A DNA stretch of 32,000 nt, from assembly GCA_048939465.1 (NCBI GenBank), contig JBHLPL010000009.1:308-32307 (forward strand), written 5' to 3'. The DNA comes from Promethearchaeota archaeon (lineage in GTDB: Archaea; Asgardarchaeota; Odinarchaeia; Odinarchaeales; JBHLKK01). A program made the position numbers and the translations under genes. Of the stretch, positions 1,971-6,169 are shown piece by piece. The stretch's first letter is position 1, and each line of letters starts with the position of its first letter. The notes under the pieces were generated by a model. The model was not told the origin of the DNA, did no database searches, and worked only from the letters and a program-made list of their open reading frames with translations.

Positions 1971-2152
1971 GCCGGGGTAGCCAAGTGGTCTACGGCGCTG
2001 GCCTCGAGAGCAGCTAACATAAAAGGAAGAATACATAAAAGACAACGGAAATCCTTTGGGACAGATTGAACAAGAAAGTCAGTGACGCAGTAGCGTCTCG
2101 CGGGTTCGAATCGGCGCTACATTACGCCGCGAGAATCCTGCCCCCGGCGCCA
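1971..2152 (+). tRNA. tRNA-Ser(CGA) with two introns (37/38: 2009-2076, 68 nt; 59/60: 2111-2135, 25 nt), CCA encoded
   Basis: Acceptor GCCGGGG/CCCCGGC; D arm GCC/GGC; anticodon stem CTGGC/GTCAG with CT-CGA-GA; long variable arm GACGC-AGTA-GCGTC; T arm GCGGG-TTCGAAT-CCTGC after removing a well-formed BHB intron (H TTCG/CGAG with one GU, bulges AAT/AAT, stem CGGCG/CGCCG). Confidence 0.93.
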
Positions 2153-2231
2153 CTTAATACAACCCATGTTACCGATCAATTAGTGCATCAATCAACACGA
2201 GTCGGGATTGGAGGGTTGGTGTTGAGGCTGT

Positions 2232-2547
2232 GTAGACTGCCCCCCGCTTTCGCAGGGAGCCTTCCATCAGAGGTTGAGTATGGTGCACCGCACCACGCAA
2301 CCCCACCGTCAACAGGACGAAAGAGCCTGCCTACAGGGACTCCAGCTCTGGTAAACTGGGAAAAGACGTTGTACCCTCGAACTTCCCGCACCTTATCTCA
2401 TCAATCCCCCCCGCGGGTCATTAACCGTTTCCACATGGGAGAAAAGCGTGCCTTTAGCCCTATTCGAATATATTGCAAGAATGTAGAATGTACTTGGAGA
2501 CGGTTCAATCACTCTCCGCCCTTCCGGACGGAGTTTCCTTGAGGTGG
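2232..2547. repeat. por-associated ~300-nt element, copy C (upstream of porG; most diverged)
   Basis: Begins GTAGACTGCCCC like copy B; shares GGTC...ACCGTTTCC...GCCTTTAG and the terminal hairpin + CTTGAGGTGGTTCA with copy A. Confidence 0.7.
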
Positions 2548-2552
2548 TTCAG

Positions 2553-3113
2553 GTGTATGAAATTCGCTGGCATGGTCGAGGAGGACAAGGTGCAGTAACA
2601 GCATCCTATGTTCTCGTAGATGCCGCATATAGAGACGGCTATGAAGGCGTTCAGTCTTTTCCTTTTTTCGGTGCTGAGAGGAGAGGGGCACCAGTTAAAG
2701 CGTTTACTAGAATTTCAAAGACGATGATATATTCCCGCTGCCAAATTTATGAGCCTGATGCGATCATAGTTTTGGATCCTACTTTGCTGGATATTGTCGA
2801 TGTTACGGAAGGATTGAAAAGAGGCGGAGTCATTGTAGCCAATGCAAATGAGGTTCCAAAGAAATGGAGAAACAAGAATTGGAAGATATACATAGTTGAT
2901 GCTACTGCAATAGCGCTAGAAGTCGGCTTGATCGTAGCGGGATCCCCTGTATTAAACACGCCGATGCTGGGCGCATTTGCTAAAGCAACGGGATTAGTAA
3001 GGCTGGAGAGAATCAAGGAAGCGATAAGCAATAAGTGGAAAGGCAAGGCCGGAGAAAGAAATATAAAAGCGGCAGAATTAGCATATGAACAGTGTAAATT
3101 GGTAGTATCTTAG
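2553..3113 (+). CDS. porG: 2-oxoacid (pyruvate-type):ferredoxin oxidoreductase gamma subunit
   Basis: YEIRWHGRGGQGAVTAS...FPFFGAERRGAPV motif; GTG start at 2553 after SD GAGGTG (2541-46). Confidence 0.93.
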   Translation: MYEIRWHGRGGQGAVTASYVLVDAAYRDGYEGVQSFPFFGAERRGAPVKAFTRISKTMIYSRCQIYEPDAIIVLDPTLLDIVDVTEGLKRGGVIVANANEVPKKWRNKNWKIYIVDATAIALEVGLIVAGSPVLNTPMLGAFAKATGLVRLERIKEAISNKWKGKAGERNIKAAELAYEQCKLVVS

Positions 3114-3129
3114 GCTAGGGGGACTTATT

Positions 3130-3462
3130 CTGAATTCTGGAACTCGGCAAAAGAGTCTGGTTCTTGGAAAGACTGCTAAGACCAAGAAAAAGAAAGCAGG
3201 AATTAGACCTGACGCAATACCTTTATCAAAGCCTGGCAGGGGATCTTACGGCAGAACCGGAGATTGGAGAACCTTCAAGCCGGTAATGGATAAAGAAAAA
3301 TGCAACAAATGTATGCTCTGTTGGCTTTATTGTCCAGAAGGAGTAATAGATCAAGGGAAAGAAGGATATCCGAAAATCGATTATATGTATTGTAAAGGTT
3401 GTGGCATTTGTGCTCAAGAATGCCCATCCAAGTGCATAGAAATGGTGAGAGAGGAAAAGTAA
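3130..3462 (+). CDS. porD: Oxidoreductase delta subunit (2x[4Fe-4S] ferredoxin-like); start codon uncertain; not in the ORF track
   Basis: Translates ...TGDWRTFKPVMDKEKCNKCMLCWLYCPEG...DYMYCKGCGICAQECP...EEK*. Frame is open from 3106 but has no ATG/GTG/TTG before the conserved core; CTG 3130 follows a GGGGG SD-like run. Confidence 0.85.
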   Translation: MNSGTRQKSLVLGKTAKTKKKKAGIRPDAIPLSKPGRGSYGRTGDWRTFKPVMDKEKCNKCMLCWLYCPEGVIDQGKEGYPKIDYMYCKGCGICAQECPSKCIEMVREEK

Positions 3463-3753
3463 ACTATTCCTCTCCTGTCGAAGGAGCTTATGACTATGCT
3501 AGACCTCAATTCCCGAGCGGGCTTTGGTTCCGGTACACGCCAAATCAGGGGGCAGTTTACATCGTCCCAGCCCACTAGTCCCCATATAACGTCGGGGTTT
3601 ATAGTTTATTTCACACATCTTCCCCACAGGTCGGTGACCGTTTCCGCGTCAGAGAGGGGTGCGCCTTTAGATATTTCAGCAAATATATAACAAACGTATT
3701 TGAAGGCCACTAAATTCCTCTCCTCCCTTTCGGACGGATTCTCCTTGAGGTGG
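3459..3753. repeat. por-associated ~300-nt element, copy A (porD-porA spacer)
   Basis: Shares AAGGAG(C/T)TTATGACTATG, GCCAAATCAGGGG, CGTCCCAGCCCA, AACGTATTT and TGAGGTGGTT with copy B; collinear. Confidence 0.85.
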
Positions 3754-3758
3754 TTCAA

Positions 3759-4970
3759 ATGAAAACACAGATTATGACGGGAAATACGGCTGCAGCGTAT
3801 GCTGCCAAATATGCGAGAGCACAAGTTATCGCTGCTTATCCCATAACACCACAAACCACAATCGTAGAAGCGATAGCGAGTCTCATAGATGAAGGTGAAA
3901 TGGAAGCAGAATACATTCGTGTCGAGAGTGAACACAGTGCTATGGCAGCTTGCATTGGTGCTGCCGCTACTGGAGCCAGAGCATTTACTGCAACATCATC
4001 CCATGGCCTTACTTTGATGCATGAAATGCTTCATTGGGCTAGCGGATCTAGGTTGCCCATTGTTATGGCAAATGTCAATCGAGCCATGGGACCGCCGTGG
4101 AATATATGGCCCGATCACAATGATAGCATATCACAAAGAGATGTTGGATGGATACAATTCTATGTCGAAAACAATCAAGAGGTATTCGATACGATCTTAC
4201 AGTGCTACCGGATTTCTGAAAACCAAGAAGTTCTGTTGCCCTCCATGGTGAACCTCGACGGCTTTATTATTTCTCACACCTCTGCCCCGCTAAGCTTACC
4301 TGGTCAAGAAGAGGTCGATGAATTCATACCGGACTATAACCCAAATCCGGAGAAACAACTTGTCATGGATACTCACAAACCAGTGACACATGGCAACATC
4401 ATTATGGTTAACAGTCCAGACGATTGGTATTATGAGTATCGTTATATGATTCACGAAGCTATGATGAACGCCAAGAAGGTCATTCAAGAAGTTGTAGAGG
4501 AGTTTCACAGAAGATTCGGTAGGTCACACGGGGGATTGGTTGAAGAGTATAAATGTAAAGATGCAAACCTGATTTTAGTATCCATGGGAACTATTGCAAG
4601 CCAGGCTAAAGCCGCTATCGATGAGTTGAGACAGGAAGGATACAAAGTGGGAGCTCTCAAGCTAAGGGTTTTTAGACCATTTCCTAGGGAGGAGTTCCAA
4701 AGACTGGCAGATAGAGTCGAAGCCCTTGCGGTGATAGACAGGAACATATCTTTTGGAATGGGGGGTGCAGCTTCCGCAGAGATTAAGGCTGCATTATACA
4801 ATCACAAGAAACACCCATTAATCTTGGAGAACATCGCAGGAATAGGAGGGAGAGACGTGACATCCTCCGATATTAAAAAGATGGTTCTGGGTGCATTAGA
4901 AGTGCTAGAAACTGGTAAAACAGGAGAGGATATTAATTGGCATGGCCTCCGAGTGGGAGAAATGAAGTAG
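3759..4970 (+). CDS. porA: Oxidoreductase alpha subunit
   Basis: MTGNTAAAYAAK...YPITPQT...ESEHSAM...ATSSHGL...NRAM motifs; ATG 3759 after SD GAGGTG. Confidence 0.95.
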   Translation: MKTQIMTGNTAAAYAAKYARAQVIAAYPITPQTTIVEAIASLIDEGEMEAEYIRVESEHSAMAACIGAAATGARAFTATSSHGLTLMHEMLHWASGSRLPIVMANVNRAMGPPWNIWPDHNDSISQRDVGWIQFYVENNQEVFDTILQCYRISENQEVLLPSMVNLDGFIISHTSAPLSLPGQEEVDEFIPDYNPNPEKQLVMDTHKPVTHGNIIMVNSPDDWYYEYRYMIHEAMMNAKKVIQEVVEEFHRRFGRSHGGLVEEYKCKDANLILVSMGTIASQAKAAIDELRQEGYKVGALKLRVFRPFPREEFQRLADRVEALAVIDRNISFGMGGAASAEIKAALYNHKKHPLILENIAGIGGRDVTSSDIKKMVLGALEVLETGKTGEDINWHGLRVGEMK

Positions 4971-5259
4971 ACTGCCCCTCCGATAAGAAAGGAGTTTATG
5001 ACTATGTTTGACTACAATTTCTTCAGGGGGTCCGGTTGCATCACATGCCAAATCAGGGGACGGTTTATAGCGTCCCAGCCCAGTGACCCGCACACAGCGT
5101 CGAGGTATGTAGTCTCTTTCACCCATGCTCCTCATCCGTTATTAGCCGCTTCCTCCCTCCGAGAGCGTACCTCTGAATCCATTAGCACGGTTGAAACGAA
5201 CGTATTTAAGGACCGCCCAATTGATCCCTTACTTTTCGGAAAGAAACTTCGTGAGGTGG
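4967..5259. repeat. por-associated ~300-nt element, copy B (porA-porB spacer)
   Basis: Collinear homology with copy A; like copy A it starts at the upstream gene's stop codon (AAG TAG ACT vs AAG TAA ACT). Confidence 0.85.
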
Positions 5260-5263
5260 TTTG

Positions 5264-6169
5264 ATGAACTCAATATTAGGACTTCCGAGGAAGGAACTCG
5301 TGTATAAGGGAAATAGCGCGTGTATGGGTTGTAGCGCTGTATTGGCAATGAGACATGTGTTAAAAGCTCTAGGTGAGCAAACTGTCATGATCATACCGGC
5401 AGGCTGTAGCACAATAATTCAGGGTCTCTATCCAAAAACTGCTATTGGCGTTCCTCTGCTCAACATCGCTTTCGAGGCTGCTGCAGCTGCGGCCTCCGGC
5501 ATTACAGCAGGATTTAGAGCTCAAGGAAAGAAGGACATTACTGTGGTAGCGTGGGCAGGAGATGGAGGGACATTTGATATTGGACTTCAGGCATTAAGTG
5601 GTGCGGCAGAACGTCAGACGAATATGATTTACATATGTTATGACAACGAGGCATACATGAATACGGGAATTCAACGTAGCGGCGCAACCCCCTACGGAGC
5701 CATAACGACCACGACGCCGGGAGGAAAGAGACTACCTAAAAAGGACCTTGATGCGATTGTCTTGGCTCACGACGTACCTTATTTGGCAACTGCCAACATA
5801 GGATACCCACAGGACCTCTATAGGAAAGTCAAAAAAGCGAAAGAAAAGGAAGGATTCAGATTCATCCACATACTAAGTCCTTGCCCCCCAGGATGGAGGT
5901 TTGATTCAAGTCTTACAGTCACCCTGGCGAAGTTGGCGGTTCAGACTGGCATATGGGTACTGTTTGAGGTGGAAGACGGCAAATTCAGACTTTCAGGACC
6001 AAGCAAGAGACTGCTGGACCCGAATAAAAGAAAGCCTGTCGAAGATTATCTGAAGCTTCAGGGAAGATTCTCAGAGCTCACAGGTGAGGATGTGAAAGAG
6101 ATAAATAGAGAGATCGTGGAAAACTGGCAAGAAATAAACAGAAAAGTCTCTCGAGCAGAAGGAGTGTAG
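5264..6169 (+). CDS. porB: Oxidoreductase beta subunit (TPP-binding)
   Basis: ACMGC, AGC, GDGG...DIGLQALSG...YDNEAYMNTGIQRS TPP-binding motif, CPPGW. Confidence 0.95.
   Translation: MNSILGLPRKELVYKGNSACMGCSAVLAMRHVLKALGEQTVMIIPAGCSTIIQGLYPKTAIGVPLLNIAFEAAAAAASGITAGFRAQGKKDITVVAWAGDGGTFDIGLQALSGAAERQTNMIYICYDNEAYMNTGIQRSGATPYGAITTTTPGGKRLPKKDLDAIVLAHDVPYLATANIGYPQDLYRKVKKAKEKEGFRFIHILSPCPPGWRFDSSLTVTLAKLAVQTGIWVLFEVEDGKFRLSGPSKRLLDPNKRKPVEDYLKLQGRFSELTGEDVKEINREIVENWQEINRKVSRAEGV

Follow-up and report, generated by a model that had tools for sequence, protein, structure and literature searches.

The window analysed here, a 32,000-nt stretch of contig JBHLPL010000009.1 from a Promethearchaeota archaeon, contains a four-gene operon for a 2-oxoacid:ferredoxin oxidoreductase (porG, porD, porA and porB, assigned with Pfam) in which spacers of about 300 nt, devoid of open reading frames (ORFs), precede porG, porA and porB. 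These spacers are very probably non-autonomous, protein-less derivatives of a tnpB element of the IS200/IS605 type of insertion sequence (IS), comparable to the palindrome-associated transposable elements (PATEs) or miniature inverted-repeat transposable elements (MITEs), and are oriented antisense to the por genes. The evidence lies in their homology, architecture, ends, target motif, empty sites, non-coding status and covariation. An earlier note on this DNA had offered two readings, a mobile element and a regulatory RNA; it is partly supported, the former being right for the por spacers and the latter not. The three elements and the genes of the operon are:

2232..2556, minus strand: element A, an IS200/IS605 mini-element that is chimeric and gene-less, preceding porG (from homology)
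2553..3113, plus strand: porG, gamma subunit, POR domain (Pfam PF01558, E = 8.7e-45)
3106..3462, plus strand: porD, delta subunit with 2x[4Fe-4S] (Pfam Fer4 families and the ORF table; the range is that of the open frame)
3459..3758, minus strand: element B, a 300-nt gene-less mini-element (nhmmer E = 1.1e-82, family positions 1–295)
3759..4970, plus strand: porA, alpha subunit (Pfam POR_N, E = 5e-73, plus PFOR_II)
4967..5263, minus strand: element C, a gene-less mini-element of 297 nt separating porA from porB (nhmmer E = 7.5e-69)
5264..6169, plus strand: porB, beta subunit, binding thiamine pyrophosphate (Pfam PF02775), opening at the ATGAA that adjoins element C

The four por ORFs are each complete, with stop and start codons of their own, and the pentanucleotide ATGAA directly adjoins elements A, B and C at 2557, 3759 and 5264, respectively. 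The stop codon of porD (TAA, 3460–3462) consists of positions 2–4 of element B, and that of porA (TAG, 4968–4970) of positions 2–4 of element C. Elements B and C align over their full length (~67% identity, E = 1e-30). Element A matches the family only in its por-proximal half (family positions 148–295; nhmmer E = 2.8e-29), its right-end half (2232–~2390) deriving from a sister subfamily (subfamily 2) and its left-end half (~2391–2556) from subfamily 1; the tip carries four extra bases, GTGT (2553–2556). The earlier note had reported three homologous copies at these sites, and this stands, over the full length for B and C and over the por-proximal half only for A; its sites were correct and its ends slightly short of those listed above. 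All of the motifs it listed were found: GTA(A/G)ACT at the beginning, GGAG closing the first hairpin, AACGTATTT, the TTTC/TTCC loop of the second hairpin, and TGAGGTGGTT. The overlap with an upstream stop codon that it described applies to porD (element B) and porA (element C), while element A follows a tRNA gene and not an ORF.

Searching this genome and its relatives for further copies, as the earlier note had proposed, revealed a dispersed family with empty sites in sister species and no target duplication. The window's own assembly (G000; 1.96 Mb in 152 contigs) yielded, with an nhmmer profile built from the search matches, 18 full-length copies of 60–87% identity plus partial modules. When family copies were aligned with 40 nt of flank, homology began sharply at GTAAACTACTCC and stopped at GAGGTGGTTTAG, the flanks being unrelated; since the 18 full-length copies share these sharp ends between unrelated flanks, the similarity of the spacers is not due to chance. 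In the same genus, two genomes contain 3 and 9 full-length copies. Another Asgard family is represented by two genomes whose copies, ~330 nt long, can be aligned over the whole length, and a third family gave a match to one half only; the sister family within this order, searched in four genomes, yielded no matches at the sensitivity of a DNA search. For the analysis of flanks and structure, 39 distinct copies from five genomes were aligned in the sense of tnpB.

The reading frames are broken differently from copy to copy, leaving no consistent ORF in the family, and neither an excess of third-position substitutions nor codon periodicity was seen among the copies, which are therefore non-coding. 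A small-protein reading was considered for the conserved ATGACTATG, which opens a frame of ~38 codons, and was rejected: the frames diverge after insertions and deletions and show no codon periodicity.

The source of the family was found by scanning the assembly for TnpB zinc-ribbon matches, which adjoin family modules on the opposite strand at contigs C55, C70 and C2 and at a decayed locus on C5 (the domains abutting the modules being PF07282/PF01385). C55 ends in the same 77 nt with which C70 begins, an exact overlap that gives a single tnpB-only IS200/IS605 element of 1,246 nt. The assembly had broken inside the tnpB of this, the only full-length copy of the parent IS; once joined, it encodes an intact TnpB of 381 aa. 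On the top strand its 5' part comprises TTCAT (outside the element), CTGAGACACC, the left-end hairpin and ATTAAATAG (TATA-like, ~27 nt before the ATG), and its 3' part tnpB, the right-end hairpin GGTGGGGTAGTTTAC and the terminus GTAGTTTAC. The tnpB ORF stops 14 nt short of the right end, and the predicted scaffold of a guide RNA (omega-RNA) overlaps its 3' end. The protein possesses OrfB_IS605 and Cas12f1-like TNB domains, its nearest relatives in the PDB are TnpB/Cas12f chains, and the motifs GVDLG, VIEDL and NSDLNGARN stand at the places expected for the RuvC residues D, E and D.

The two ends of this IS are the two ends of the mini-elements, which have kept ~75 nt of the left end and the last ~220 nt of the parent and have lost tnpB. 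The former is the por-proximal module, which includes the TATA box in reverse (AACGTATTT), the hairpin that has the TTTC loop, and TGAGGTGGTT; the latter contains zinc-ribbon coding remnants and is the region where TnpB elements encode their omega-RNA. It follows from this homology that all three elements of the window lie on the minus strand, antisense to por, with which the GNRA loop that the earlier note had recognised on that strand agrees. The non-autonomous mobile element at gene junctions that it had considered can thus be named: these are deletion derivatives of a tnpB IS200/IS605 element, adjoining a start-codon pentanucleotide and absent at these sites from two sister species. The match to a known IS end, which the note had said would speak against its own reading, was found. 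Read along the minus strand, element B presents the left end, the TATA box, the putative omega-RNA scaffold, the right-end hairpin and the end motif TTTAC; its features, with those of its por-proximal border, are:

3717..3739, minus strand: subterminal hairpin of the left end (reading CTCCTCCC TTTC GGACGGAT on the plus strand, with a GAAA loop on the minus)
3696..3706, minus strand: left-end TATA-like box, reading CCTTCAAATAC on this strand (a TTAAATA column block is conserved in the 39 copies)
3459..3680, minus strand: predicted omega-RNA scaffold of ~220 nt (from homology to the tnpB 3' end and the IS right end, and from covariation)
3747..3753, plus strand: GAGGTGG, reverse complement of the left-end tip and candidate replacement Shine-Dalgarno (SD) sequence, 5 nt before the porA ATG (from sequence)
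3759..3763, plus strand: ATGAA, reverse complement of the target motif TTCAT and also the porA start codon (from the flank table of 39 copies)

The TATA-like box of element B is the counterpart of the box that, in the full IS, precedes tnpB by ~27 nt, and may act as a promoter. Its predicted scaffold ends in GTTTAC (3464–3459), from where a guide would continue into 3458 and below. The left-end hairpin (CTCCGTCC-GAAA-GGACGGAG) lies ~19 nt from the tip and the right-end hairpin (CTCCTTC-TGCA-AGGGAGGAG) 8 nt from the end, and both keep their pairing through compensatory changes between families. The aligned copies have no terminal inverted repeats, possessing these subterminal hairpins instead.

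The assembly contains a single Y1 tnpA gene (contig C105), in an IS whose right end shows the same type of hairpin and a GGAGTAGTT(T/C)AC end. This sole Y1 tnpA lies within a tnpA+tnpB IS (C105:1000-3000), and directly upstream of it stands a hairpin and, after it, the mini-elements' right-end motif GGAGTAGTTTAC; this could be the end of an element that is nested there or abuts. The genome contains at least two more IS200/IS605 subfamilies: mini-element subfamily 2, with at least 7 copies elsewhere that have their own left end and are also flanked by ATGA, and a tnpB IS of the type found on contig C2. The latter, a third subfamily with the flank GATAAA, accounts for most of the more than 25 'solo' matches to the por-proximal 60–70 nt. 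The left-end hairpin of the C2-type IS (TnpB of 384 aa) recurs at more than 20 loci, with GATAAA and not ATGAA as the flank. Loci of these further subfamilies include C2:25982-27400, C10:25502-25653, C144:4070, C138:467 and C62:7654. Two other loci appear to represent stages of reduction. That at C5:945-1316 (minus strand) is an intermediate stage of decay consisting of the right-end module, ~150 nt of tnpB zinc-ribbon remnant with a stop codon, and the left-end module; it adjoins ATGAA and an upstream ORF of 364 aa that ends in the element's TAA. That at C84:8667-8761 is a minimal derivative of ~100 nt in which the right-end hairpin module is fused to the left-end hairpin module and followed by ATGAA, the omega-RNA body being missing.

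The flanks of the copies reveal the target motif. In this genus the left-end flank, read in the sense of por, is ATGAA in 15 of 30 copies and NTGA in most of the others (ATGAG, ATGAC or ATGAT in 5), the sense of the transposon giving NTCAT or TCAC for most of these; in the family designated f16 it is GTGA in 8 of 9 copies and ATGAA in 1 of 9. Beyond the right end no conservation was evident in the flank table of 39 copies. The right end itself terminates in TTTAC, which is related to TTCAT. As far as the flanks indicate, this is the IS200/IS605 pattern, with TTCAT as the transposon-adjacent motif (TAM) at the left end and TTTAC at the right-end terminus. The flanking ATG opens an ORF of 150–800 aa at 11 of the 18 copies in G000, and several others have a start codon within 4–10 nt. 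Only ~255 (3.4%) of the 7,412 ATGAA sites in this assembly are gene starts by a crude count, so that the enrichment of copies at starts is strong. It is explained well enough by the specificity for the motif together with the loss of gene-breaking insertions, and by itself is no proof of active targeting. Read in the direction of por, the right end offers G followed by TAA or TAG, a new stop for the upstream gene, and the TAA at element positions 2–4 closes the upstream ORF in 13 copies or more, as insertion into ATGA overlaps predicts.

At the other end, GAGGTGG stands 4–6 nt before the ATG and is conserved in most copies. SD-like tetramers occur before 36% of the crude gene starts in G000 versus 13% inside ORFs; the 3' end of the 16S rRNA (GGATCACCTCC), sought for a check of the anti-SD sequence, is not present in this assembly. 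An insertion between the native SD and the ATG displaces that SD by 300 nt and, since the por genes are nonetheless intact, it may be argued that the GAGGTGG of the element is used and replaces the displaced SD in translation. The earlier note's statement that the element supplies the SD of the downstream gene is accurate as regards the sequence, its use in translation being a plausible extension.

The por operons of two sister species of the same genus (G001 and G002) are compact, with ATGA stop/start overlaps and without the elements. Between porA and porB the empty site reads GAAATGAA/ATGAAT in G002 and GATTAA/ATGAAC in G001 (the slash marking the point of insertion), the TGA of porA overlapping the ATG of porB; the occupied site in G000 reads GAAATGAA/GTAGAC, continues through element C to GGTTTG, and resumes with /ATGAAC. 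Removal of element C rebuilds the ATGA overlap exactly, and there is no target duplication. The insertion has changed the last porA codon from AA/A to AA+G, which still specifies Lys, and the TAG of the element then terminates porA. The left junction between porD and porA (GAGGAAAA/) behaves likewise, with AAG TAA in place of AAA TGA. On the other side of this junction, 28 nt that precede the orthologous ATGAAAAC in the sister species are missing in G000, which points to a second event in one lineage; G000 may have lost them in connection with the insertion of element B, or they may have arisen by duplication in the other lineage. The 28 nt are ATGAGAAATGAAGACAAAGGTTTCAGAA (G002 L099:1468-1500; G001 L100, reverse complement; window 3459) and include a second in-frame ATGAAG. 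Upstream of porG the empty site in G002 is GAGATTGT/ATGAAATTC, the start being TTG TAT GAA. Insertion before ATGAA at this place would split codon 2, and the GTGT at the tip of element A recreates an in-frame GTG TAT GAA in G000. By comparison with G002, the start codon of porG is likely the GTG at 2553, supplied by the tip of element A, and the extra GTGT is probably a product of selection following the insertion.

Immediately before element A stands a tRNA-like gene (1972–2155, plus strand), which, with its ends conserved, also precedes porG in G001 and G002. With the acceptor GCCGGGG...CCCCGGCGCCA and the anticodon loop CUCGAGA it looks like a tRNA-Ser(CGA), seemingly with two interruptions, one of ~75 nt following the anticodon loop and one of ~25 nt within the T arm. 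A scan of the window for tRNA and tmRNA genes with ARAGORN gave no matches, and this gene was not called.

Occupied orthologous sites are few, there being only four among G000, G001 and G002. At these the elements are 73–87% identical, versus 60–78% at the third codon positions of the flanking genes. From this slower evolution and the small number of shared sites we conclude that the copies are old and their turnover high, the element evolving somewhat more slowly than near-neutral sites; this is compatible with constraints on the element itself and is no proof of use by the host.

The structure of the putative RNA was examined with RNAalifold, which returned 38 consensus pairs, 20 of the 38 with double compensatory changes (for example UGAC/GUCA versus UAGC/GCUA, CGC/GCG versus CUC/GAG, and both end hairpins); a second count of pairs with double changes gave 25. 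Canonical pairs make up 89%, compared with 36–46% when the partners were slid by 1–3 columns in scripted controls and with 85.5 +/- 0.3% in column shuffles; the copies being related, these covariation and pairing figures overstate independence. Where the prediction agreed for both strands (40 pairs), 110 G-U pairs are valid in the sense of tnpB, versus 66 for the other strand. The alifold energies also favour the minus strand of the window (-112 versus -93 and -110 versus -91 kcal/mol in two runs) and are not relied on here. Covariation and the order of genes in the full IS together make an omega-RNA scaffold, on the window's minus strand, the best reading of this RNA.

By the known mechanism of this family, the mini-elements would move as single strands through a Y1 TnpA acting in trans and insert 3' of TTCAT without target duplication. 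The surviving insertions would be those directly before start codons, a position that follows from TTCAT being the complement of ATGAA. At ATGA overlaps the right end, read backwards as G TAA or G TAG, would re-terminate the upstream gene, and the left-end tip, read backwards as GAGGTGG, could replace the displaced SD; with the stop and SD signals restored in this way, both cistrons would stay intact. A promoter in the left end would transcribe the omega-RNA from the minus strand, with a 3' guide taken from the flank beyond GTTTAC, and the TnpB of the genome could use the omega-RNA of a mini-element in trans. It is conceivable, and suggested here only tentatively, that the lineage has become adapted for seamless docking into translationally coupled junctions beyond merely surviving there, its target motif, end motif and left-end tip mimicking a start codon, a stop codon and an SD on the sense strand of the host. 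Were this so, the element would colonise ATGA overlaps in essential operons without polar damage, and each insertion would plant at a gene boundary an antisense, self-promoted guide-RNA gene that the host or TnpB could use for regulation.

Several observations weigh against the interpretation of the spacers as IS200/IS605 derivatives with an omega-RNA. Folded as a single sequence, element B is no more stable than its shuffles on either strand (z = +1.35 and +1.16), and the omega-RNA, its promoter and any use of it by TnpB are predictions from sequence. The element matches no Rfam family, nothing relevant having been returned for the whole window at gathering thresholds or for a consensus-like copy at E <= 10. 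GAGGTGG is equally intact in copies without a downstream gene, and is absent from the tips of subfamily 2; its conservation may therefore serve transposition and not translation. A comparison of SD decay between copies with and without a downstream gene gave no clear pattern. Owing to the 28-nt difference, one side only of the porD/porA junction is exactly comparable with the sister species, and element A, being a chimera of two subfamilies with four extra tip bases, does not represent a clean IS605 insertion. The copies, at 60–87% identity, are old, which bears on their current mobility.

The most serious competitor, which we consider unlikely, is that the spacers are former transposons retained by the host as intercistronic modules by which the por cistrons are uncoupled or tuned in translation or transcription, the means being an SD or a stop supplied by the element, possibly a bidirectional TATA box, or an antisense RNA over the end of the upstream gene. 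The conservation of orthologous copies relative to the flanking third codon positions, the many genes that use the SD-like and stop-like ends, and the presence of three insertions in a single operon whose ORFs are all intact would be in keeping with it. Constraints on the ends and on the omega-RNA of the element predict moderate conservation equally well, however, and the SD motif is no less intact where no gene follows. Moreover, the por operons of the sister species work without the elements, and a mere 4 orthologous pairs among ~30 copies signify high turnover.

An undescribed cis-regulatory RNA or promoter module for each por subunit had been the other proposal of the earlier note, and does not survive the finding that copies precede many other ORFs and that the structured RNA is on the opposite strand. 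In its specific form, a riboswitch-like leader on the plus strand that senses a por-related metabolite and was duplicated for each subunit gene, it would account for the location directly 5' of three por genes and for the conserved hairpins, and its 5' end can pair with the SD region; we regard it as highly improbable. The same element stands before many different ORFs, with one copy adjoining a tRNA gene, G001 and G002 have por operons without it, on the other strand it shows homology to a tnpB IS, and the bias in wobble pairs favours the minus strand. The pairing between the 5' end and the SD, tried as a candidate in its own right, exists and was set aside on the strand evidence and the tnpB homology. 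Equally hard to credit is an intron-like element (of the tRNA-type bulge-helix-bulge, group I or group II kind) spliced from a polycistronic por mRNA. The ends of the element can indeed pair, UAAACUACU with GGUGGUUUA, but the four por ORFs are complete unspliced, no Rfam intron family matched even at E <= 10, the conserved ends show no evident bulge-helix-bulge geometry, and homology to tnpB accounts for the whole length.

Taken as gene-less derivatives of a tnpB IS, the elements explain 300-nt spacers in a normally compact operon without a new class of RNA. Within a single operon the locus shows three independent insertions from diverged source copies; at one of the junctions two sister species have the exact empty site, and the right end is seen to re-terminate the upstream gene at ATGA overlaps. 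It offers a clear natural example of an IS200/IS605 lineage inside essential operons whose ends can recreate the displaced stop, SD and start, and bears on the persistence of TnpB-type elements in small, gene-dense genomes. For annotation, the family should be masked in metagenome-assembled genomes of Asgard archaea before novel non-coding RNAs or leaders are called. The Asgard TnpB, with its predicted omega-RNA and TTCAT, constitutes a defined candidate for biochemical tests and is relevant to the relationship of TnpB to Fanzor and Cas12.

Elements of this kind have already been described, in that IS200/IS605 derivatives of the PATE/MITE type which retain a guide-RNA module are known (Meers et al. 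2023). PATEs were first named in Haloquadratum walsbyi (PMC3119063), and PATE-like gene-less elements, often encoding omega-RNAs, occur in Geobacillus stearothermophilus (Meers et al. 2023, PMC10055086). Like these, the por elements possess no protein gene, both IS ends with subterminal hairpins, many copies per genome and a fixed pentanucleotide beside the left end, lack inverted terminal repeats and target duplications, and appear to have kept an omega-RNA scaffold and to depend on TnpA and TnpB in trans. They differ from the PATEs described in their host, an Asgard archaeon (Odinarchaeia), in the presence of three copies in one operon, and in that TTCAT and TTTAC read backwards as start and stop codons and the left-end tip as an SD, owing to which the copies pile up exactly at gene starts and ATGA overlaps; the por elements are known here from sequence alone.

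The IS elements of Geobacillus have TAMs of the TTCAT and TTTAT types and transposon-encoded motifs (TEMs) that differ from them at positions 3 and 5, the TAM of ISGst5 being TTCAT and the TEM in the ISGst2 excision assay TTCAC (PMC10055086). The por family resembles these ISGst-type IS605 elements in having a pentanucleotide target motif beside the left end, a similar right-end terminal motif differing at positions 3 and 5 (here TTCAT versus TTTAC) and, as in their TnpB members, a predicted guide-RNA scaffold at the 3' end of the nuclease gene. ISGst5 encodes IscB, whereas the partner of the por family is TnpB; there is no sequence similarity between the por family and the ISGst elements, and the TAM of the former is deduced from its flanks. 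The omega-RNA, or right-end element RNA (reRNA), of ISDra2 TnpB (PMC8612924; structure, PMC10097598) provides the third parallel, its scaffold overlapping the 3' end of tnpB, running to the right end and taking its guide from the flank, as is predicted for the por family. No RNA model in Rfam is common to the two, and the relation of the proteins is distant and limited (E = 0.0065 for the C-terminal piece against ISDra2 TnpB chains); the TnpB of the por family has OrfB_IS605 and zinc-ribbon domains and is related to solved TnpB/Cas12f chains.

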